Assembly (NCBI GenBank): GCA_016839365.1
Contig: JAEOUH010000075.1
Coordinates: 1-12,509, forward strand
Source of the DNA: Candidatus Hermodarchaeota archaeon
GTDB taxonomy: Archaea; Asgardarchaeota; Hermodarchaeia; Hermodarchaeales; Hermodarchaeaceae
DNA: 12,509 nucleotides
Reading direction: 5' to 3'
Shown: positions 701-12,335 of the stretch, piece after piece
Layout: each line of letters begins with the position of its first letter
Position numbering within the stretch: the first letter of the stretch is position 1
Program-made: the position numbers and the translations under genes
The notes under the pieces: model-generated
Database searches by the model: none
Told to the model about the DNA's origin: nothing
The model's input: the letters and a program-made list of their open reading frames with translations, nothing else

Positions 701-1273
701 CTATTGGTTCGAGAAGCGTTGGCAGAGCCATGGGTCAGCGCCTTGGTGGTAGCCGCGTTGTTCCCAATAACCGAGGACGACCTCTGTGAGGAAGCTGATG
801 CGGCGTACCCACTTTACGCTTTTCCAAGCATAGAGGCGGGGGACAACCAGGCGGACTGGCCACCCATCTTCGACGCGGAGGGGTTCATCGTTGCGGTTCC
901 ATGCCAGGAGAACGTCCTCTTCCATGGACACGTCTAGGTCAATACCTGACGTGTATTCATGTTCGGCATGGAACAGCACGAATGTCGCCGAGGGTTTCGG
1001 CTTGACAATTTTTGCGATTTCTTTGAACTGGACTCCTTCCCATTTGTTATCGGGAACTGACCAGGTTTCTACGCAGTGAAAATCGCTTAGCTGGGTTGTG
1101 ACGGGTAATGCTCGAAATTCGTTATATGAGAAAACGTGGGGATTTTCGACCTCTCCATCCACGGTGAGCGTCCAGGAATTAGGGTCGAAGGGTTCGGGCA
1201 TAGGTTCCGCCGTACGTACGAGGAACCCCGTGATCCATCGTTGACCCGGGGGAAGGCGTGGCTTGTGAGACAT
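701..1273 (-). CDS. sulfite oxidase-like molybdopterin-dependent oxidoreductase (Oxidored_molyb domain, YuiH-like, cytoplasmic)
   Basis: Motifs are RLPPGQ at the N-terminus, DFHCVETWS with the Mo-ligating Cys, WEGV, GWPVRLVVP, YAWKSVKW and GYWEQRGYH. There is no Tat signal. ATG 1273 (MSHKPRLPPGQ) is preferred over the track's TTG at 1339. Confidence 0.9.
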   Translation of the reverse strand: MSHKPRLPPGQRWITGFLVRTAEPMPEPFDPNSWTLTVDGEVENPHVFSYNEFRALPVTTQLSDFHCVETWSVPDNKWEGVQFKEIAKIVKPKPSATFVLFHAEHEYTSGIDLDVSMEEDVLLAWNRNDEPLRVEDGWPVRLVVPRLYAWKSVKWVRRISFLTEVVLGYWEQRGYHQGADPWLCQRFSNQ

Positions 1274-1428
1274 AGTTATCGCCTCAGCAGGTGTTTCGCA
1301 CGCTCTAAGTTCATATAGCCTTCGGATTTCTTCATACAATCAGTTTTACTCAAGTCTCTGGATGCCGCATTGAGTAGTGATAAAAAGCCGTTGAACAGGT
1401 TTCAGGTAATCCTGGAGGCTTTGACAAC

Positions 1429-1659
1429 ATGAAAAGTTACCTGAAAATCTATGTGAGTAGCGAAGGCGCTGCCCCAAGTGAAGTGGTTGAACGATTAATG
1501 CGAATGGGCTTTCAACCAGTAGCCGGTAACTATGACTTCGTCATTGAATGGGATGAGAATGGTTCGGTACAGGACATGATTGAAGTCGCAAATCAAGTCC
1601 ATGCTACACTCAAAGGATGCAAAGTCATTTTCAAGATGGAAACTGTGCCAACGAGATGA
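1429..1659 (+). CDS. small hypothetical protein (76 aa), resembles an uncharacterised archaeal family
   Basis: ATG preceded by GGAGG at 1414-1418. It has a protein-like alternating beta/alpha pattern (SEGAAPSEV, GF.P..GNYDF..EW, LKG..V.FK.ET) and fills the gap between opposite-strand genes. Confidence 0.85.
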   Translation: MKSYLKIYVSSEGAAPSEVVERLMRMGFQPVAGNYDFVIEWDENGSVQDMIEVANQVHATLKGCKVIFKMETVPTR

Positions 1660-1671
1660 ATTTGCTGTGGT

Positions 1672-2784
1672 CTACTGTTCAATGACTTTCGTGACAAATT
1701 TGCCATTCTTGTAGAAGAGCTCGTTATCGGCGTAGATCTTGCCATCCTTGGTCATATCGGCGAGAAGATCCCAATGAATCGCGGATTCATTCTTGCCCCC
1801 GCTTTCTTCAAAACCGTTACCAAGTGCACAGTGGATGGTTCCGGTTAGTTTCTCGTCAAACAAGATATTCTTCGTAAACTTCGTAATCCCTGGGTTCGTA
1901 CCAATGGCGATTTCACCTAAGCGTTTCGCGCCCTCATCGATCCCAAGAATGTGATCTAGGAGATCCTGACCCTTCTCAGCAGTAGCTTTGGTTACAAGTC
2001 CCTTCTCAAAGGTGAGGGAGACATTTTGGACTTCCTTTCCCATGAAAATTCCTGGATATGAGAAGCGGATTGTCCCTTCGACACTATCTTCAATGGGAGA
2101 TGTGAAGATTTCCCCATCAGGCATATTCAAGTGTCCATCAGCATTGACCCAGTTACGACCGGTGACTTTGGCAGTGAAGTCAACGTCTGCACTTTCAAAT
2201 CGGATGATGTTTTTTGTGTTGAGGTACTTGGTGATTTTAGCTTGGGTTTGGCTGATTTTTTGCCAAAGCTTCACTGGATTAGGTTTGTCGACCAAGCAGG
2301 CACCATACACGAAGTCTTCGTATTCTTCGGTTCCCATATTGCCCTCTTGTGCAAGGCTGGGAGAGGGATATGGGACTAACGCATACCAGCCTTGTTTGAG
2401 CCGGGCCGTGAAGCGTTTTTGCAGTTCGGTTTGGGCCTTAGCAGCGCGGGCTTGTTTGGCTGGATCGACATTAGCCATGGCTTTTCGGTTATCCGATGAG
2501 TAGATGACAATGTAGCTGTCGATTTTGTCAATCATATCAAGAATGAGAGGATTCACATAATCGAGTTGGTGGTCTTGGGCGTATTTATAAAAGATTTCTT
2601 GGGCGCGTGGGAGATAGATTCGGGTGAATGGATGACCACCAGCTTTCATGATTTCTCGGGTGAGTTCAAGGACGAGGGGTTCGCTGAAGGCGGGGGCGCT
2701 GATGCCGACGAGGTCGTCTTTTTTGACTCCCAGGGAGTATTCGACGATCAGTTGAGCAAGTCGTGATATTCGATCATCAACCAT
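1672..2784 (-). CDS. aminopeptidase, peptidase family M29 (AmpT/AmpS type)
   Basis: Metal-ligand motifs NMPDGEIFT, RLGEIAIG, LFDEK, GTIHCALG and SAIHWD are present. SD AGGTGG lies at 2791-2796 on the minus strand. Confidence 0.95.
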   Translation of the reverse strand: MVDDRISRLAQLIVEYSLGVKKDDLVGISAPAFSEPLVLELTREIMKAGGHPFTRIYLPRAQEIFYKYAQDHQLDYVNPLILDMIDKIDSYIVIYSSDNRKAMANVDPAKQARAAKAQTELQKRFTARLKQGWYALVPYPSPSLAQEGNMGTEEYEDFVYGACLVDKPNPVKLWQKISQTQAKITKYLNTKNIIRFESADVDFTAKVTGRNWVNADGHLNMPDGEIFTSPIEDSVEGTIRFSYPGIFMGKEVQNVSLTFEKGLVTKATAEKGQDLLDHILGIDEGAKRLGEIAIGTNPGITKFTKNILFDEKLTGTIHCALGNGFEESGGKNESAIHWDLLADMTKDGKIYADNELFYKNGKFVTKVIEQ

Positions 2785-2842
2785 AATTTTCCACCTTTGA
2801 AGGAATGCCCTTCATAGGTGATTGGGAGAAAAAGGTTTGGTT

Positions 2843-4072
2843 TCAGGAAAGGTTAGAAAGTAGTTCACTGGGTCTTTTTGTACGATTGAGGAACCGACCA
2901 CTGACACGTTGGGCGATGTGGTTAACAGTCTGGCTAGCCTGCGCTCGAACTCCACCCACTCCGTTACTGATGCCCCCCGCAATGCGGCTAAGCTGTTTGC
3001 GGACAATTGCCCAGCTGACGAAGGGTTCAAAGTCGTCAATGCGATCATAGATAGCATTGGTAAGCACAGAGGGGTGCGTGACAGTTAAATGCGCATTAAC
3101 CTGGTAGTCTTGGTCTTGAGCCTTGGATATGAAGGCTGCAACACTTTCCCTTGTTAAAATCGGTGCTACATGGGCACGGTCAAATTTTGCCAGTCGGTGA
3201 GCGTTGGTAGCTTGTTCAATGTGATTATCGAGAGGATTGAGATAAATGTGCTTTTTAAGCAGGATAGCTTCCCAGGAAGATGAGAAGCCCGCATGCATGA
3301 GGACGCCCTTGCTTGAAGCCATGTCTTGAAGGAAGGTTTGCCGACCTGTGGGTTCAAAGGAGACATGACCAAGTGTTTCCTTTCGGTGGTAACCATAGAC
3401 TTTGAACCGCTCCTCGGGGAACTTCTTCAAGACTTTGAGGACATGCTGTTCCCGAAGATAGGGGAGATATACACAATAATGGTCTTCCACTGTTGGGGTG
3501 TAGTCAAGTAATTCGAATTTCTCAAATAGTGGAAATAGGGTACCAATTCCTGATCGTTCCAATTCTTGGACAAAGTCGATGGCAAAATAATGATTACAGA
3601 GAGGCGTGCAATACAGAACTAAACCCATGCCCACGATTAAATCGTGGACTTGAACGGGTGGCAACACCTGTTTGAAGTGAATCAAGGAATGTTGATGATC
3701 AACGGAGATAACAGGTTTTTGAGTAGCCAACCCGGCCATACAGGAAAAGCCTTCAAAATCAGTAATAATGGCGTCATAATCTTCCTGCTTCACGAGCCGT
3801 CGAACATTTTCAAAAATTCGGGGGAAGTTACGAAAGTGTAACAGATTCTGTAGCAGTGTTTCAGGGACATTGATTCCTTGACCTGAAAATTTGATCTTAT
3901 ATCCAGGGATATGTCGCCAGCGACGGACTAGTGATTTAGCATACAATGGCGGTGTTGGTCCACTGAATAGACAGTCAACTTGGTGGCCATCAAACAGGAG
4001 TTGTCGAATGACATCACGGGCACGGTTGATATGTCCCTGCCCGTTTGTATTTATCCCATAGAGAAGTCTCAT
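2843..4072 (-). CDS. GT-B fold glycosyltransferase, MJ1255/VC2487 family
   Basis: N-terminal MRLLYGINTNGQGHINRA, then IITDFE, ISVDHQH, CVYLP, HAGFSSSWEA and EQATNA. ATG 4072 fits the family start better than the track's TTG at 4087. Confidence 0.88.
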   Translation of the reverse strand: MRLLYGINTNGQGHINRARDVIRQLLFDGHQVDCLFSGPTPPLYAKSLVRRWRHIPGYKIKFSGQGINVPETLLQNLLHFRNFPRIFENVRRLVKQEDYDAIITDFEGFSCMAGLATQKPVISVDHQHSLIHFKQVLPPVQVHDLIVGMGLVLYCTPLCNHYFAIDFVQELERSGIGTLFPLFEKFELLDYTPTVEDHYCVYLPYLREQHVLKVLKKFPEERFKVYGYHRKETLGHVSFEPTGRQTFLQDMASSKGVLMHAGFSSSWEAILLKKHIYLNPLDNHIEQATNAHRLAKFDRAHVAPILTRESVAAFISKAQDQDYQVNAHLTVTHPSVLTNAIYDRIDDFEPFVSWAIVRKQLSRIAGGISNGVGGVRAQASQTVNHIAQRVSGRFLNRTKRPSELLSNLS

Positions 4073-4310
4073 CAAGACTCGCCGCAATGCATTTTCTAAT
4101 TACTTAATGAGCAGGAAGTGTTCTCCCTGTATTCGACTACCATGAGTCTGAAGTGGGAACCTCGTTTCTCTCCAGGCTTTGCCACATCGTACACGGTTTA
4201 TTCCACTCAATATGGGCTAAGGTTATAGTCTCTGGGTTGACGTTTTAGTTTTCCCTATATATTAATATCCGACATAATCTCTATAGAAGCCGTAGACCCC
4301 TGGAAACAGG

Positions 4311-7157
4311 CTAAAAGTGGATTTCCCGGGTTCTAGCCACCCATTTTATAAGTTCCATTCCGACAACTGCGGGTACTGCAAGGGCGATAACAACGAGCCA
4401 ATCCAGGATGTTGAGGGGAACAAAGTAGAAATTAATTCCAATCCCTGCAAGAACTTCATTGAGTAGGGGACTGTACATGACTGCCAAGACCATGAGGAAT
4501 ACGAACGCAAGCATAAGATAGATGAACCAGTAGCTTTCGTCTCGGATTGAGTGAATGGCAGATCGATTGATGCGACGAATGCTTATTATCATTAGCGATT
4601 CGGTTATGACTAGGACGCATATAGTCATGACCGGAGCTTTCATAATATTGAGAGGATCTCCCGGAATTGTTCCGGGGAGTAGGGCGTAGAGAGTGCCAAA
4701 ATAAGCGATTGCGGCCCCGACGAATATGAGGATGGCGTTGATAATTAGGTAAGTGCCTAAGGGTCGTGTTATGACACCTTCGGTGTCACGGGGAGGTTCT
4801 GCCATGACGTATTTGGGATTAAGATCAAAGGTGAGGGCAAGCCCTGGCCAAGTGTGGCTGGAGATAGCCAAGAAGATATGTTGCCAGGAGGTCAAGAACC
4901 GGAGCCCAAGGTAGAAGGTTGCGAAGAAGATGATGGACTCTGCCACATTGATGGCGATGTAGAACAGAATCATTGCGCGGATTTTGTTAAATAAGCCACG
5001 GCCTTGTCGAACGCCTTCAACGATGGAATTGTAGCTATCATCAGCGATGATTAAGTCCGATGCTTCTTTAGCCACATCCGTGCCTGTGATCCCCATAGCA
5101 ATACCGACATCACTCATGCTCAGTGCCAAAGCATCATTAACCCCGTCACCTGTCATCGCCACAGCGTGTTTCGCTTTTTGGTACCGTTCGACGATTACTT
5201 GTTTATCTTCAGGATTAACGCGTGCGAATACACTTACTCTCCTGAAGTCATCGTCACTGATGGCAGGAGCTTCTTTTCCTTCAACAACGAGGTCCTTCTC
5301 GTTGACAATGGCAAGCTGTCGCCCAATGGTTTCAGCCGTTCCCGCAGCATCACCAGTGATCATGACAGTTCGGATGCCTGCATTTGCGACTTCTTCGACA
5401 GCATCACGAATTCCTTCACGTGGTGGGTCAACGATACAAACAAAGCCCAGATAGGTAAGTTGTTGTTCTATCTTATCTCGTGGATCCATGCCCTTTCCTG
5501 AGGGTAGTTCATCTAGATGCCGGATGGCGAAGGAAAGGACACGGTACCCGCCTTTAGCATAGGTGTCCGCGTACTTGTTGATTTCCTTGACTTGCTTCTT
5601 TGCTAGTCGTTTACTAGTACGGTCATCACCGATTGCCGTTGATCGCTCGAGGAGAACATCGGTTGCCCCTTTTACAAAGGCGATGTGTTCGCCTTCAGGA
5701 TTTCGGAACACACGGGTCATGCGTTTCAACCGAGAGTCAAAGGGATAATCTTGTTCTAACTGATAGGCTGAGTGGAGACTACTTTCGGGGATACCGCTCT
5801 TTCGAAGGAGGACAATGAGGGCGGCTTCGGTAGGATCGCCGATGACCTTCCATTGATTTTCAAACTCCGATTCTTCATCGAGGAGGACTTGCGCATCGTT
5901 GTTTAAGGCGCCCACGCGAACGAGTAATGACAATGTATTGTAATCTTCAATCTCAATAGGTTTTTCAAGACCTTTTTTCTCCACAACCAACTGAATTGTT
6001 CCTTTGGGACTATATCCTTCGCCAGTTACATGGAAAAGATTTGAGCCATCCCATACTAGGCTTACCATCATTTCGCTCCGTGTCAAGGTTCCTGTTTTAT
6101 CAGTGCAAATGACACTGACCCGACCAATGGTTTCGACTGCAGTTAGGTCACTGACGATAACACCCAGGGTAGCCATTCCCAGCACCCCAGTAAGGAGGAT
6201 GATTGTGGTGAGAAGGGGTATGTTGATTGGCGCTACGGTCATTGCGTTGATGATGGCTTCCATCGCGAGCTCTGGCGGTGTTAGGAAAAGCCCGTCTACA
6301 GGTCGGGGAAATACGATATAGGAGACAAATCCTAAAATTCCTAAGAAGAGAGCAGCTACACCCAGATAAACCGCCAAGCGATTGACCTTGCGTCGAAGAG
6401 GTATTTCCCCGGTGTTGAGGGTTTCAAGCCCTTCACTGATCTGACCTATTTCAGTATTCTGACCGATATTGGCTACAAGACAGCGTCCTGATCCTGTTGC
6501 GATATAAGTTCCACTATACACCATGTTCGACCGTTCATGCAGCGGAATAGCTCGGGGTAATGGGTTTATACTGACTTCTTTTTCTACAGGAGCACTCTCA
6601 CCGGTAAGTGAAGCTTCGACTACTGACAGATGGTTAGCCTCAATGAGCCGGCCGTCAGCGGGAATCTTGTCTCCTTGAGAAAGGACAACAACGTCACCAG
6701 GAACCACATCCTTGGTGTCAATCTCCTTCTTCAGGCCTTCGCGAATGACTATCGTTGTATCTGCCGTCAGAGATTGCAGGGCTTCCAGTTTCTTTTGCGC
6801 ACGATACTGCTGGATGATGGCCAAGATGGCATTGAAAACAATGACGACTACCCAGATAAGAGCCTGCTCTATACCAGGGGTGTTGAAAACCAGCACAAGG
6901 ACTGCCATCAAACAAATTGCAACCAGATAAATGAGAATCAACCCATTCAGGATGGGAGCTAGATAGACGCGCCAGAAGGAGCCACGAATCCTTGGGAGTT
7001 GATTTGACCCAAAGATGTCCAACCGCTTTTGGGCTTCTCCACTCATGAGCCCGTTCTCCAAATCAGCGTGCAGTTGTTGTGCTAGTTCTTCTAGGGGTTG
7101 GCTGTGTGGGTCGTGAATACCCTCTTGTTCTGATTGAGATTCTCCGCTGGAAGACAT
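4311..7157 (-). CDS. P-type ATPase, P2A/SERCA-like scaffold with a non-canonical transport site
   Basis: Motifs are VPGD, PADGR, LTGES, DKTGTLT (D353), GDPTE, FDSRLKRM, KGA, DPPR, MITGD, FARVNPEDK and TGDGVND, with about 10 hydrophobic segments. SD AGGAGTG lies at 7162-7168 on the minus strand. Confidence 0.96.
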   Translation of the reverse strand: MSSSGESQSEQEGIHDPHSQPLEELAQQLHADLENGLMSGEAQKRLDIFGSNQLPRIRGSFWRVYLAPILNGLILIYLVAICLMAVLVLVFNTPGIEQALIWVVVIVFNAILAIIQQYRAQKKLEALQSLTADTTIVIREGLKKEIDTKDVVPGDVVVLSQGDKIPADGRLIEANHLSVVEASLTGESAPVEKEVSINPLPRAIPLHERSNMVYSGTYIATGSGRCLVANIGQNTEIGQISEGLETLNTGEIPLRRKVNRLAVYLGVAALFLGILGFVSYIVFPRPVDGLFLTPPELAMEAIINAMTVAPINIPLLTTIILLTGVLGMATLGVIVSDLTAVETIGRVSVICTDKTGTLTRSEMMVSLVWDGSNLFHVTGEGYSPKGTIQLVVEKKGLEKPIEIEDYNTLSLLVRVGALNNDAQVLLDEESEFENQWKVIGDPTEAALIVLLRKSGIPESSLHSAYQLEQDYPFDSRLKRMTRVFRNPEGEHIAFVKGATDVLLERSTAIGDDRTSKRLAKKQVKEINKYADTYAKGGYRVLSFAIRHLDELPSGKGMDPRDKIEQQLTYLGFVCIVDPPREGIRDAVEEVANAGIRTVMITGDAAGTAETIGRQLAIVNEKDLVVEGKEAPAISDDDFRRVSVFARVNPEDKQVIVERYQKAKHAVAMTGDGVNDALALSMSDVGIAMGITGTDVAKEASDLIIADDSYNSIVEGVRQGRGLFNKIRAMILFYIAINVAESIIFFATFYLGLRFLTSWQHIFLAISSHTWPGLALTFDLNPKYVMAEPPRDTEGVITRPLGTYLIINAILIFVGAAIAYFGTLYALLPGTIPGDPLNIMKAPVMTICVLVITESLMIISIRRINRSAIHSIRDESYWFIYLMLAFVFLMVLAVMYSPLLNEVLAGIGINFYFVPLNILDWLVVIALAVPAVVGMELIKWVARTREIHF

Positions 7158-7190
7158 CCGGCACTCCTAGATGGGCTTGTGTGATAAATG

Positions 7191-7197
7191 CTTAAAA
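7191..7197 (-). promoter_or_regulatory. putative archaeal TATA box for the P-type ATPase
   Basis: TTTTAAG on the minus strand, about 35 nt upstream of ATG 7157, leaving room for a short leader containing the SD. Confidence 0.45.
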
Positions 7198-7216
7198 GTG
7201 AATTGCGAGGTGCAAT

Positions 7217-9613
7217 TTATCCAGCTGGACGGTTATGTTCTCGCATGATGTTTGCCATTTCTCGGAGTCGTTTATCGACTCGCCCGAAAATGGAATCCTC
7301 TGGATAGGAGCCATTAACCTTTTTTTGACCGGCTGGAACGCCTGTCAGTAGTTCGATACCTTCACGGATGGTTCGGACCGAATGGATGTGGAATTTTCCA
7401 GCTTCGACCGCCTCAATCACCTCATCTTTGAGCATGAGGTTTTGGACGTTCGATTCGGGCATCAAGACCCCTTGATCACCGGTCAAACCCATTTCCTTGC
7501 AGACGGCAAAGTACCCTTCGATTTTTTGGTTGATTCCTCCGATGGCCTGCACTTGACCATGTTGGTTGACGGAGCCTGTTACCGCGAATCGCTGTTGAAT
7601 TGGAACCCCTGAAAGAACTGAGAGTAGAGCATAGAGTTCGGTGCTGCTCGCACTATCACCGTCGACACCACCATAACTTTGTTCAAAAGTGATCCGTGCT
7701 GACAAGCTCAGGGGTTTGTCTTGTCCAAATGTTTCATGGAGGAACCCGGTGAGGATTTGGACCCCTTTGATTTGAATGGGCCCACTGAGTTGAGCTTCCC
7801 GTTCAATGTCGATGACCTGCCCCCGTCCTGGAGCCACAGTTGCGGTGATACGTGATGGTTGTCCGAAGCTAAAATCGCCTAATGAGAGGACGGATAATCC
7901 ATTGATTTGACCGATAGCTTCGCCTTTTGTGTCGATGAGGATGACACCTTTCTTGATGTATTCACGTACCTTCTCCGCATAGAGACTCGATCGGAAGAAG
8001 CGTTCATCCAAGGCTTTCTTGATATGAGCTAGTTCAATGGTCTTTTTCCTGGCTTTTTTCGCATAGAAGTTCGCTTCACGAATAATATCAGAAACAACGT
8101 CAAAGCGAGTTGATAATTTATTTTGATCATCAGCTAGCCTTGAACTGAAATCGACAACTTCGGCAATAGCTTCTGCAGTGAGGGGAAGAAGATCTTCTTT
8201 TTCCGTGAGTGTGCAAACAAAGTCCCCATAAATTAATACGGCATCTTTATTCCTATCCATAGAGGTATCAAAATCAGCTTTCACCTTGAATAATTCACGA
8301 AAATCGGGATCTAGCTGATACAGCTGCTGATACCATAGTGGCTCACCTATCAAGATGACTTTAACTTTTAATGAAATTGGTTCTGGATGCAACGTTTTTA
8401 CCGAAAGAAAGCCCAAGGCGGCGACTGGTTCCTCAATGACAATCTCGTCGTTTTGGAGCGAACGTTTCAAGGCTTCATATGATGCGGGTGCTAAAAGTAG
8501 TTCGCGGACAGGAATCACGATATAACCACCGTTAGCTTGGTGGATGTAGCCAGCGCGAATCATTGTTGTGTCGGTTACAAATGCGCCAAATCGAGGTTCT
8601 TTTTCAATGACGCCAAAAAGCCGATTATACGCAGCATTAGTCACTTCAACAATAGGGACACCCTCGGTTTCGGAATTGTCCACAATGAGATTGACCTTGT
8701 AACGTTTAGCAAAATCCTCAGGTGAGGGCAAGCGCTGGAGCAGCTCAGGAGGAAGACCCTGAGGGACCCGTCCAATAAACTCGTTCAGATTCTCAATCAT
8801 GTCATCAGCAAGTTGGTTGAGCCACGCGACGGCTTTTTCATTTCCCGCAAATTCCTCTTCAATTTCATTAATCAGTGGGTCAAGGGTAAAGCGGACACCT
8901 TTCTCTTCCATCTGCTTAAGTTCTTCACGTAGATCCCGCTCAAAAGCCCGGAGTTTTCGAAAGGCAGACCGTAATTCGGATTCCAAAGCAGTACGCCTTT
9001 CTTCGATTTGCTTTCGAACTTCTGGTTTCAGTTTGGGAATCATATCGGGTGTAATCGGTTTCCCTTGGATAACTGGCACCATCAGTAACCCAGTTTGGGT
9101 ACCCTGTAGCACGAATCCAGCTTCTTGAGCTTTAGCCCGCATCTCTTCAGTGAGCTCATCACGTTGGGCTTCATAGGATTGGGTCACTTCTTCTCGTTGC
9201 TGGGCATATTCTTCGCTTTCCATCATACGTTGGATTGAGGTGCGCGCCGCTTCAACGAACTTATCGATTTTCGTGACAAATACCCTTCCCATCCCCGCAG
9301 GAAACTCCAAGGCCGTGGGCTTGAACTGGTTCTTATAATTAGTCACATAACACCAATCGGATGGAACTTCACGCACCTTGGCTGCAAGCTCTTTTAGGTA
9401 ACGGCTCACTGCAGTGGTACGCCCCGTGCCAGGACTACCTGCCACATAAATATTGAAGCCCTTATCAGGAATTTCCAGACCAAATTGCAGGGCATTTAGA
9501 GCACGAGGCTGGCCCACAACTCCTTCTAATGGTGATAACTCAGCGCTAGTTTTACACGTAAATTCCATTGATTTGCATCTTGCCCGAAGTTGATTAGATT
9601 GTAATTCCGGCAT
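7217..9613 (-). CDS. LonC-type Lon-like protease (degenerate AAA+ module, coiled-coil insertion, S16 protease domain)
   Basis: N-terminal GQPRA; Walker A-like GSPGTGRTT; DWCYV.N; long coiled coil; HQANGG; FEQSYGGVDGDSAS (catalytic Ser); AVTGS; GGINQKIEG (catalytic Lys). It lacks the transmembrane insert of archaeal LonB. Start is ATG 9613 or TTG 9619. Confidence 0.92.
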   Translation of the reverse strand: MPELQSNQLRARCKSMEFTCKTSAELSPLEGVVGQPRALNALQFGLEIPDKGFNIYVAGSPGTGRTTAVSRYLKELAAKVREVPSDWCYVTNYKNQFKPTALEFPAGMGRVFVTKIDKFVEAARTSIQRMMESEEYAQQREEVTQSYEAQRDELTEEMRAKAQEAGFVLQGTQTGLLMVPVIQGKPITPDMIPKLKPEVRKQIEERRTALESELRSAFRKLRAFERDLREELKQMEEKGVRFTLDPLINEIEEEFAGNEKAVAWLNQLADDMIENLNEFIGRVPQGLPPELLQRLPSPEDFAKRYKVNLIVDNSETEGVPIVEVTNAAYNRLFGVIEKEPRFGAFVTDTTMIRAGYIHQANGGYIVIPVRELLLAPASYEALKRSLQNDEIVIEEPVAALGFLSVKTLHPEPISLKVKVILIGEPLWYQQLYQLDPDFRELFKVKADFDTSMDRNKDAVLIYGDFVCTLTEKEDLLPLTAEAIAEVVDFSSRLADDQNKLSTRFDVVSDIIREANFYAKKARKKTIELAHIKKALDERFFRSSLYAEKVREYIKKGVILIDTKGEAIGQINGLSVLSLGDFSFGQPSRITATVAPGRGQVIDIEREAQLSGPIQIKGVQILTGFLHETFGQDKPLSLSARITFEQSYGGVDGDSASSTELYALLSVLSGVPIQQRFAVTGSVNQHGQVQAIGGINQKIEGYFAVCKEMGLTGDQGVLMPESNVQNLMLKDEVIEAVEAGKFHIHSVRTIREGIELLTGVPAGQKKVNGSYPEDSIFGRVDKRLREMANIMREHNRPAG

Positions 9614-9654
9614 ATTCAAACCTTCTCAGAATTGGAATTGTTAGGATTTGCTTC

Positions 9655-9662: not shown

Positions 9663-10016
9663 CCCGTTGAGAACATGCCACTCACCTTATCGAACGAGTT
9701 AATACTTCGATTATCAGTTGCACAAAACAAACTCAGCTCACCACGCGATCAATTGCATATTCGATAACCCACCATTCAAGGAGTTAACGCCGTAAATGGT
9801 TGTGAAAACTAAAATCCCTTAAGGAAATCGCAGGTCAAACCCAAACTTCCTTGGTCACAAAAGGTCAAACAAGAACTCGTTTCGTAAATTTTTAGACCAA
9901 CACTCAGGCTACAATCCTAAAACTTGGAAAAGAATTAAATTTGTCATAGAAAAATTTGAACTAACCGGTTTATGAAGGTATTTGTATATCTTTCACTTGT
10001 TTTGTCTTGAAATATT

Positions 10017-10844
10017 ATGACACTTGAAACGACCGACTCTGAAACACAGATATCCTCGAGCGGATCTGTTCTCTTGTGGTTCTTTATTCTAACTTTTGTA
10101 CTTTTCATCGTGGCAATTGGTATTTCGGCAGCAATACCACTTTTTGTGCTCCAACTTTTTCCTCCCTGGGCACCAAGTATTGCCGCGTTCATCGTGATAT
10201 TATTAGTTCTGAAAGAACGGAACGGAATTAGGAAATTAGTAGGAAAATTAGGGATATGGAGAATCGGAATTGGTTGGTACCTGGCAGCTCTTTCGCCCTT
10301 CGCGATTTCCCTCCTAGCAATAGGGCTATACATTGGTCTGGGTAATCCAATCCCTGGACCACATATGCCCTTTGACTGGAGTATTGGTTTGTTTTGGTTA
10401 ATTGGTAGTGTGGTGATTGGTTCCATTGGAGAAGAATTGGGTTGGCGGGGATTCGCATTACCACATCTGCAATCACGGTTTAGCGCCCTAGGTTCAAGCC
10501 TCATCCTTGGAGTATTCTGGGGATTCTGGCATTTACCCATTTATCTGTTAATTGGACTTGAGGAGGGGCAATTTGATCTCCTTAATTTTCTAAGTTTCAT
10601 CCTGTTAACCGTGTTCATATCCATCATCATCACATGGATTGTGAACAACACCAATGGAAGCGTCTTGGGTGCCATAATTTTCCACGCTTCCTTTAACTTC
10701 TCACTCGCCCTATTCGTTGAAATCTTAGGTCTCATTCAGTTACAATGGTACTTTCTAGCTATCATCATACTGTACTCTATCTATGCCATCACCTTAGTCA
10801 TTATCTACGGCTACACACGTCTATCAACAAAACCAAGCACCTAA
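10017..10844 (+). CDS. CPBP family intramembrane glutamic endopeptidase (CAAX prenyl protease 2 / Rce1 / Abi-like)
   Basis: Polytopic hydrophobic protein with motifs GEELGWRG, FWGFWH and HASFN. Confidence 0.93.
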   Translation: MTLETTDSETQISSSGSVLLWFFILTFVLFIVAIGISAAIPLFVLQLFPPWAPSIAAFIVILLVLKERNGIRKLVGKLGIWRIGIGWYLAALSPFAISLLAIGLYIGLGNPIPGPHMPFDWSIGLFWLIGSVVIGSIGEELGWRGFALPHLQSRFSALGSSLILGVFWGFWHLPIYLLIGLEEGQFDLLNFLSFILLTVFISIIITWIVNNTNGSVLGAIIFHASFNFSLALFVEILGLIQLQWYFLAIIILYSIYAITLVIIYGYTRLSTKPST

Positions 10845-11129: not shown

Positions 11130-12335
11130 ATGGCCAAAACACCCACAACCATGACCATCCCCATCGGACCCCAACACCCCGCGCTCAAAGAGCCGGAAAA
11201 CTTCACCGTCACCATCGACGGAGAAATCGTCGTCGATGTCGCTGCCCGTATCGGCTACGTCCATCGCGGCATCGAAAAGGCTTTCGAAAGTCGCACGTTT
11301 AGTCAAAACGTCTATCTTGCTGAACGAATTTGCGGTATTTGTTCCCAATCCCACACGACCGCCTACGTACAGGCCGTTGAAGAGATTCTTGGTTTAGATG
11401 TGCCAAAACGTGGTCTCTACATCCGTGCCATCATGAATGAATTGAACCGAATTCACAGCCACATCCTATGGCTCGGTGTAGCGGGGCACGAGATAGGCTG
11501 GGATACTTTGTTCCATTATTCCTGGCGGGATCGCGAGTACAGCATGGATATCATCGAAGAGATTTGTGGGAACCGTGTCAACTATGCTAACAACATCATC
11601 GGTGGCGTTCGCCATGATATCGAAAAAAGCCAAGTTCCTGGCATGGTGGAACGCCTCGAGAAAATCAAAGCACGTATCCATAACTACATCAACCTTATTT
11701 TGAAAGAACAGACCATCCTTGATCGGGCAGTTGGTGTAGGTATCCTCAAAACCGAAGTCGGCAAAGCCCTCTGCGCCACCGGCCCCACAGCCCGCGCCTC
11801 CAACATCGACTGGGACGTCCGCGTCACCCAGCCCCGCACCCCCTACAAAGAAAGCTTCGGCAAACACTGGGAAGTCCGCCTCTCCGACATGTGCGACGTC
11901 GCCGGTCGCGTCGTCGTCCGCATGCTCGAAACCCTCGACGCCTGCAACTGCGTCATCGACTGGCTCACCCACCTCCCCTCCGGCGACATCAGCATCCGCG
12001 CACCCAAACGCGTCCCACCCGGCAAAGCCCTCAGCACCTTCGAAGCCCCCCGCGGCGAAGTCGTCCACTTCGTCGTCAGCAACGGCACCGACAAACCCGA
12101 ACGCCACAAAGCCCGTGCCCCCACCCTCGGCAACATCCCCAGCGTCATCGAAATGCTCAAAGGCGGCAAAATCGCCGACATCCCCATCGCTCTAGCTAGT
12201 ATTGACCCCTGCTTCTCCTGCACTGACAGAATTATACTTTCATACCATGATGGAAGGCAGGAAGAGAAGCCGTGGGCGTGGTTCCAGCAGAAGAGTCGTG
12301 AAGAGCGGGAACACGTGAAAGCCTGGCGTCGTTAA
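11130..12335 (+). CDS. group 4 (energy-converting type) [NiFe]-hydrogenase large subunit, MbhL/EhbN-like
   Basis: IPIGPQHPALKEP, GYVHRGIEK, L1 motif ERICGICSQSH, ELNRIHSH, EAPRGE, RAPT and L2 motif DPCFSCTDR; all four Ni/Fe cysteines are present. A 34-aa C-terminal extension follows the Arg. Confidence 0.93.
   Translation: MAKTPTTMTIPIGPQHPALKEPENFTVTIDGEIVVDVAARIGYVHRGIEKAFESRTFSQNVYLAERICGICSQSHTTAYVQAVEEILGLDVPKRGLYIRAIMNELNRIHSHILWLGVAGHEIGWDTLFHYSWRDREYSMDIIEEICGNRVNYANNIIGGVRHDIEKSQVPGMVERLEKIKARIHNYINLILKEQTILDRAVGVGILKTEVGKALCATGPTARASNIDWDVRVTQPRTPYKESFGKHWEVRLSDMCDVAGRVVVRMLETLDACNCVIDWLTHLPSGDISIRAPKRVPPGKALSTFEAPRGEVVHFVVSNGTDKPERHKARAPTLGNIPSVIEMLKGGKIADIPIALASIDPCFSCTDRIILSYHDGRQEEKPWAWFQQKSREEREHVKAWRR

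Follow-up and report, generated by a model that had tools for sequence, protein, structure and literature searches.

An archaeal, mostly Asgard clade of P2A-like P-type ATPases with a rebuilt membrane ion-binding site

Introduction

The stretch of DNA analyzed here (the window; 12,509 nucleotides (nt), contig JAEOUH010000075.1 of the Candidatus Hermodarchaeota archaeon assembly GCA_016839365.1) encodes a P-type ATPase, denoted P0001, in which the complete catalytic apparatus of the P2-type ion pumps is combined with unusual residues at the positions that bind Ca2+ in the membrane part of SERCA. The locus raises the question of whether such a pump still carries Ca2+, as the database labels of its relatives have it, or rather another cation, a lipid, or nothing at all. 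We consider it fairly probable, judging from sequence comparison, that P0001 is a working E1/E2 aspartyl-phosphate cation pump with a single binding site for an ion other than Ca2+, and that it represents an undescribed archaeal subfamily.

A 2023 review sorts the P-type ATPases into the families P1 to P6, leaves the Asgard archaea unmentioned and points out that prokaryotes still hold undescribed P-type diversity (PMC10654040). A survey of the transporters of Asgard archaea mentions no more than “a putative Ca2+ ATPase,” and a study on the evolution of the endoplasmic reticulum Ca2+ system traces SERCA to a bacterial origin. In papers on Asgard transporters, Ca2+-ATPase labels serve as evidence of Ca2+ signaling (PMC7997004). 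No description of the clade discussed below was found in the literature on P-type families and Asgard transporters. The clade is large and old, and is encoded by most genomes of the Asgard phylum, the closest archaeal relatives of eukaryotes; its members are routinely mislabeled “Ca2+-transporting ATPase.” Knowledge of its ion would correct models of Asgard ion homeostasis and show how P2 pumps change their specificity.

An intact catalytic core and a rebuilt membrane site

The protein contains the full P2-type set of Pfam domains (Cation_ATPase_N, E1-E2_ATPase, Cation_ATPase, Hydrolase and Cation_ATPase_C), and its 93%-identical homolog is equal in length. The initial annotation had read the motifs TGES, DKTGT, KGA, TGD and GDGVND as intact and the gene as not decaying. 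Both statements are borne out by the translation (Table 1) and by the 30 divergent members of the clade defined below, in which the catalytic residues are invariant, with strict conservation down to 34% identity. Near-identical DNA occurs in sequencing runs from nine metagenome studies (marine sediment, mangrove, sediment and soil); the contigs of some runs cover only parts of the pump gene. Four runs, one from each of four other studies, yielded contigs in which the M4 and His768 codons are unchanged, and all seven differences among these contigs over the whole gene are synonymous. P0001 thus has a complete catalytic machinery, and its gene evolves under purifying selection. Given this agreement across studies at the M4 and His codons, the substitutions described below are real and not a quirk of assembly.

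The Ca2+ sites of SERCA are the natural reference for the membrane part. We take site I to consist of N768, E771, T799, D800 and E908, and site II of E309, N796 and D800; D800 is the ligand common to both. In a HMMER alignment to Listeria LMCA1, P-I-N-I-P of P0001 lies over P-E-A-L-S in M4, and A..S-H lies over N..N-D in M6. The register is the same as in SERCA, with 43 residues from P310 to D353 (P308–D351 in SERCA). Together with 105 canonical relatives, this alignment confirms what had initially been aligned by hand, namely Ile at the E309 position and the replacements N796 to A, T799 to S and D800 to H. It also confirms that the equivalents of N768 and E771 in M5 and of E908 in M8 are retained (N737, E740 and E853). 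The M4 sequence VAPINIPLL had been read correctly as well, but the interval assigned to it spans PINIP only.

A column-by-column comparison of the 30 clade members with the 105 canonical relatives shows how far the change extends. The canonical frequencies are E 0.99 (E309), G 0.90 (G310), N 0.97 (N796) and D 0.91 (D800). At the same columns, the clade has I, V, F, W or L at the E309 position, Asn at the G310 position (N312; 27 of 30 members, none of the canonical pumps), mostly hydrophobic or aromatic residues (Y, F, V, I or A) at the N796 position, and His at the D800 position in 29 of the 30 representatives. E740 is present in all 30 and N737 in most. The clade-specific substitutions are concentrated in M1, M2, M4 and M6. 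In M1, the canonical Gln is replaced by P68, and L70 occupies the position of SERCA E58, where LMCA1 has Lys.

The comparison shows that in site II and the cytoplasmic entry funnel the canonical residues are replaced, in all four helices, by non-ligating ones. The coordinated loss of site II proposed in the initial annotation is therefore supported and extends to M1 and M2. The proposed remodeling of site I takes the form of retained residues with His in place of Asp. Five polar residues of the putative site are retained across the clade, two of them new (N312 and H768) and three shared with SERCA (N737, E740 and E853). The sole member without the M6 His, P0145, has Gln instead, and also Ser for the M4 Asn, Ser for the M5 Asn and Gln for the M8 Glu. 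This is a coordinated second remodeling of the site, and it suggests that N312, N737, the His and the M8 Glu behave as one unit.

As far as is known, LMCA1, SPCA and PMCA, which bind a single Ca2+, all retain site II; the clade does the reverse and keeps site I. The clade can thus be viewed as a natural experiment, in which the SERCA site discarded by the known single-site Ca2+ pumps is the one retained, with a histidine at the shared Asp position.

A conserved archaeal clade

The 120 closest homologs of P0001 (93% down to 46% identity), where named, come from Promethearch-, Hod-, Thor-, Loki- and Hermodarchaeota. The M4 sequence PINIPLLTT and the M5 pattern N..ES are present in 120 of 120, and the M6 His lies within [ST][ST]H[ST][FW]P wherever the script located the M6 motif (84 of the 120 homologs). 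The Glu of M8 also belongs to the motif set that these homologs share. The initial annotation had allowed that the substitutions might be unique to this sequence or lack support in reads, or that close homologs might keep PEGL and D800; neither is the case.

An exhaustive HMMER search over 1.8 billion cluster representatives yielded the clade set used throughout, 30 representatives of 50%-identity clusters. From 1242 to ~480 bits, the ~30 full-length representatives share the M4 pattern P-[IVFWL]-N-[IFL]-[PVI], the M5 pattern N..E, the His at the D800 position in M6 and the Glu of M8. The edge of the clade is sharp: among the 150 hits listed, every lower-scoring full-length one carries Glu (or Ser) where SERCA has E309, and nearly all of these combine PEGLP with N..D. 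Occurrence outside the Asgard phylum is judged from how a few cluster members are named (Odin-, Kor- and Promethearchaeota). The named outlying members are one Odinarchaeote and one sequence labeled Korarchaeota, and the clade is therefore archaeal rather than strictly Asgard. A contig search with the clade alignment, which contains the universal DKTGT and GDGVND patterns, returned solely canonical pumps at 29–37% identity. A search of the ESM Atlas with the divergent member P0154 returned generic P-type clusters only.

Within the Asgard phylum, 301 of 400 genomes match at E≤1e-150 (~290 without about a dozen borderline scores), and a clade pump is present in 73 of 90 high-quality genomes. All 27 full-length ATPase open reading frames (ORFs) from 21 loci have P-I-[NT]-x-[PV] plus the His. 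The initial expectation of an undescribed, conserved P-type clade is thus supported by the 120 homologs, by the 30 representatives and by the trees described below. In one large Asgard family, two PIN/His paralogs are usual and often encoded in tandem, which points to an old duplication kept in most genomes of that family. The paired types read PINLP...HSLPS and PINIP...TLHxFPG. One such pair occupies positions 1187–4135 and 4574–7495 of locus L124, and tandem or near-tandem clade paralogs are also found in L125, L126, L130, L131 and L134.

Placement among the P-type ATPases

In a FastTree phylogeny (LG+G) of 135 P2-like representatives, rooted with the P1B pumps of the same genome, the 30 clade members are monophyletic (Shimodaira-Hasegawa (SH)-like support 0.93), and monophyly of the canonical pumps receives 0.08. 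An IQ-TREE analysis (LG+G4, SH approximate likelihood ratio test) added three archaeal P3A pumps above the TIGR01647 cut-off and five bacterial MgtA-type P3B pumps. It gave 99.2 for the clade, 77.9 for the canonical group and 100 for the node joining the clade to the canonical PEGLP pumps, with P3A plus P3B outside (84). The model for P2C (TIGR01106) had no match in five genomes or in the controls, hence no P2C pump is in the tree. With a reference set that contains no eukaryotic P2 sequences and none of the P2B, P2C, P2D, P4 or P5 types, the clade is on the P2 side, predicted as a sister group of the prokaryotic P2A-like pumps or an early branch among them.

The scores against curated family models are consistent with this placement. 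P0001 passes the P-type superfamily model TIGR01494 (HAD-IC; 257 bits, cut-off 62.3) and remains below the cut-offs of the PMR1-type model TIGR01522 (445 vs 798.3), the SERCA-type model TIGR01116 (436 vs 703.4), the P3A model TIGR01647 (307 vs 615.5) and the P4 model TIGR01652 (95.7 vs 431.25). The other P-type models are likewise sub-cut-off (IID 391, IIB 358, IIC 314, IIIB 274 and P5 224 bits). Separately, pumps from metagenome-assembled genomes of methanogens (L137 and L140; PEGLP, M6 NIIMDGPP) reach ~488 bits against the P3A model, short of its cut-off, and branch inside the canonical P2A-like group; the P3A model therefore attracts non-P3A pumps.

P2A Ca2+-ATPases (LMCA1, 9euq and 6zhf; SPCA1, 8iwt and 7yag; SERCA1/2) share with P0001 the domain order, the ten-helix layout, the TGES, DKTGT, KGA and GDGVND motifs and, as in SERCA site I, the N..E of M5 and the Glu of M8. 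They are its best sequence matches (E about 1e-115, ~29% identity). The closest folds to its AlphaFold model (predicted local distance difference test 82.5, predicted template modeling score 0.74) are SPCA1, SERCA and LMCA1 (E 1e-59 to 1e-56), followed by the Na,K- and H,K-ATPases. P0001 differs from P2A pumps in PINIP for PEGLP, A..SH for N..TD, the changed M1/M2 entry, ALAL for APAL and an insert in loop 5/6.

The resemblance to other families is more limited. P3A pumps comprise the plant AHA2 and fungal Pma1 H+-ATPases. Archaeal members (L144–L146) are also non-acidic at the E309 position (P-A-A-L-P, P-A-G-L-P and P-V-A-I-S), and the site likewise centers on a single protonatable residue at the D800 position of M6. 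In P3A pumps, however, this residue is the Asp that P0001 has exchanged for His, and M5 contains an Arg. P1B-4 pumps of the CoaT/PfeT type, compared by description and only as an analogy, have a membrane-site His and bind transition metals through His plus Glu, but they form an unrelated subfamily with the M4 motif SPC and fewer helices. The proposed P6 family, typified by Mycobacterium CtpE, is prokaryotic and P2-like with a replaced M6 Asp (Ile in CtpE), but by description it retains PEGL and lacks the N-domain Lys, whereas P0001 has PINIP and K496 (PMC10654040).

Proposed mechanism and transported ion

By homology with SERCA site I, N312, N737, E740, H768 and E853 together would form one site-I-like binding site. 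A single cation would enter this site from the cytoplasm in E1, be occluded upon phosphorylation of D353 and be released outside in E2P, the direction of transport being assumed. H768 would serve as a ligand and, when protonated, could provide the built-in counter-charge for E740 that triggers dephosphorylation. A His acts as internal counter-ion in P1B-4 pumps, and a positive residue in TM5, typically Lys (Lys or Arg), has this counter-charge role in P1B-2, P3A and P4A pumps (PMC10654040).

Because the five conserved ligands include a His and two carboxylates, a divalent transition metal (Mn2+, Fe2+, Co2+, Ni2+ or Zn2+) would be the best fit for the cation, and we place it first tentatively, at somewhat less than even chances. 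Sites that combine His, carboxylates and amides are typical of transition metals and rare for Ca2+, Mg2+, Na+ and K+. Two weaker possibilities are H+, carried through a His-based proton site, and one of Na+, K+ or Mg2+. If the first or second of these assignments were true, a transition metal would be moved on a P2 scaffold, or protons would be carried by a histidine. We lean, by a little, toward the view that the clade founds a new P-type subfamily, sister to P2A and near-universal in Asgard archaea, with a His/Glu site-I-like pocket and a cargo not known for any P2 pump.

Several observations weigh against this interpretation. The single five-residue site is derived from homology with SERCA site I, and the predicted substrate from residue chemistry alone, while the T799 position varies within the clade. 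Neither a metal regulator nor a chaperone or small subunit is encoded near the pump loci. The genome holds three CDF exporters, VIT1-like exporters and NhaA Na+/H+ antiporters, and so leaves no obviously vacant role. A pump found almost throughout the phylum would more readily serve a housekeeping ion than detoxification. The inventory of transporters in the genome (2.2 Mb, 84% complete), where searches for PF00999, the Mrp subunit MnhG and NhaC gave no hit, does not discriminate between the candidate ions.

The alternative that survives best is that P0001 is still a Ca2+ (or Ca2+/Mn2+) pump, with one Ca2+ bound at the retained site I (N737, E740 and E853) and His768 tolerated. Three oxygen ligands of site I are indeed kept, Ca2+ pumps are the best matches by hidden Markov model, sequence and fold, and relatives are labeled as Ca2+-transporting in the databases. 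Yet the curated Ca2+-ATPase models score P0001 far below their cut-offs, site II, which is kept in the known single-site Ca2+ pumps, is erased, and the Asp shared by both sites is His in all but one of the 30 representatives. The genome encodes five P-type ATPases: P0001, two canonical PEGL/NLVTD pumps, a CPC pump and a CPH pump. Ca2+ and copper export would therefore be covered by other pumps, and P0001 would be a paralog with a different job. Thus, on sequence grounds, Ca2+ appears unlikely as the transported ion. Of the two canonical pumps, that on contig C91 is fully SERCA-like (PEGLP, NAGE, NLVTDGLP), and that on contig C79 is P2A-like with M5 TTLAES and M6 NLVTDGMLD.

A flippase for lipids or other bulky substrates, convergent with or ancestral to the eukaryotic P4 ATPases, had been suggested initially from the Ile at the E309 position (PINIP vs PISL). 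Also in its favor, no archaeal group is closer to eukaryotes than the host lineage, and hydrophobic residues fill site II. However, the residue after the M4 Pro is the only likeness to ATP8A1 and Drs2p, and Ile there is not a P4 signature, as position 311 is I, V, F, W or L in the clade, with Ala or Val at the same position in archaeal P3A pumps. P4 ATPases carry DGET in the A domain and a Lys in M5, associate with a Cdc50 subunit and contain no buried carboxylates, whereas P0001 has TGES, no Lys in M5, and the conserved E740 and E853 in the membrane core; the initial statement that it is not a true P4 enzyme stands. Its score on the P4 model is lower than even that on the P5 model, the 50 best fold matches include no P4 structure, and the tree groups the clade with P2A-like pumps. 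No CDC50-like gene (PF03381) was found in the 84%-complete genome or beside the 21 loci, which is weak evidence because the control genomes also gave no match. We therefore regard a flippase as highly improbable. Every feature tested also argues against the bolder version of this idea, that the clade marks a route from ion pumps to the large-substrate P4 and P5 pumps of eukaryotes, a question beyond the scope of trees that contain no eukaryotic references.

A non-transporting sensor or regulator, or a decaying paralog that merely cycles ATP, would account for the missing canonical ligands and for the lack of a visible partner or regulon near the loci, but is very improbable given the strict conservation of the catalytic and new membrane residues down to 34% identity, the presence in about three quarters of the phylum, the retained duplicates and the solely synonymous differences between populations.

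Genomic neighborhood

The pump gene and its neighbors are listed in Table 1. A LonB/LonC-like protease is encoded 59 nt upstream of the pump gene on the same strand; the two genes adjoin solely in the window's own family (the window and loci L116–L118). Synteny of the M29 aminopeptidase and the molybdopterin oxidoreductase domain protein is limited to the same family. In another group of loci, ketopantoate hydroxymethyltransferase and a subtilase are encoded near the pump. Twenty related loci with 7-kb flanks have no phylum-wide conserved neighbor. An AT-rich, TATA-like stretch between the protease and pump genes is a possible promoter of the pump gene itself.

Table 1. Features of the window and of the encoded P-type ATPase (aa, amino acids).
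Feature	Protein position (aa)	Window position (nt)	Strand	Remarks
Molybdopterin oxidoreductase domain protein		701-1339	-	Downstream of pump
M29 aminopeptidase		1672-2784	-	Downstream of pump
Glycosyltransferase (Glyco_trans_1_3)		2843-4087	-	Downstream of pump
P-type ATPase P0001		4311-7157	-	948 aa; single 2,847-nt open frame
M8 VITES	850-854	4596-4610	-	E853 at SERCA E908 position; at least 90% conserved in clade
M6 SSHTWP	766-771	4845-4862	-	His768 (4854-4856) at D800 position; A764 at N796 position
M5 NVAES	737-741	4935-4949	-	N737 and E740 at SERCA N768 and E771 positions; E740 in 30/30
GDGVND hinge motif	670-675	5133-5150	-	Followed by ALAL vs APAL (P to L677)
TGD	601-603	5349-5357	-	T601-D603; translation, clade conservation
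N-domain KGA	496-498	5664-5672	-	K496; translation, clade conservation
DKTGT phosphorylation motif	353-357	6087-6101	-	D353; translation, clade conservation
M4 PINIP	310-314	6216-6230	-	I311 at E309 position; N312 at G310 position
A-domain TGES	185-188	6594-6605	-	G186 and E187 invariant in 30 clade representatives
M2 Q117	117	6807-6809	-	SERCA E109 position; canonical E 0.97, clade Q 25/30
M1 entry region YLAPILN	65-71	6945-6965	-	Y65-N71; replaces canonical F-L-E-Q-F-x-D; clade vs canonical columns, LMCA1 alignment
AT-rich TATA-like stretch		7184-7197	-	Candidate promoter, 27-40 nt upstream of ATG
Lon-like protease		7217-9619	-	800 aa; AAA_32 LonB-like AAA, LonB LID, LonC helical, Lon_C; longest ORF starts with TTG

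In the remainder of the window, a long plus-strand ORF (10017–10844), which encodes a Rce1-like CAAX protease, overlaps a long minus-strand ORF (9944–10540) that has no Pfam match and is probably not a gene. The content of G plus C climbs from ~0.42 to 0.55 over 10–12.5 kb of the window. The plus-strand ORF at 11130–12335 contains Complex1_49kDa and NiFeSe hydrogenase domains and would encode the large subunit of a membrane-bound hydrogenase or of a complex-I-like module.

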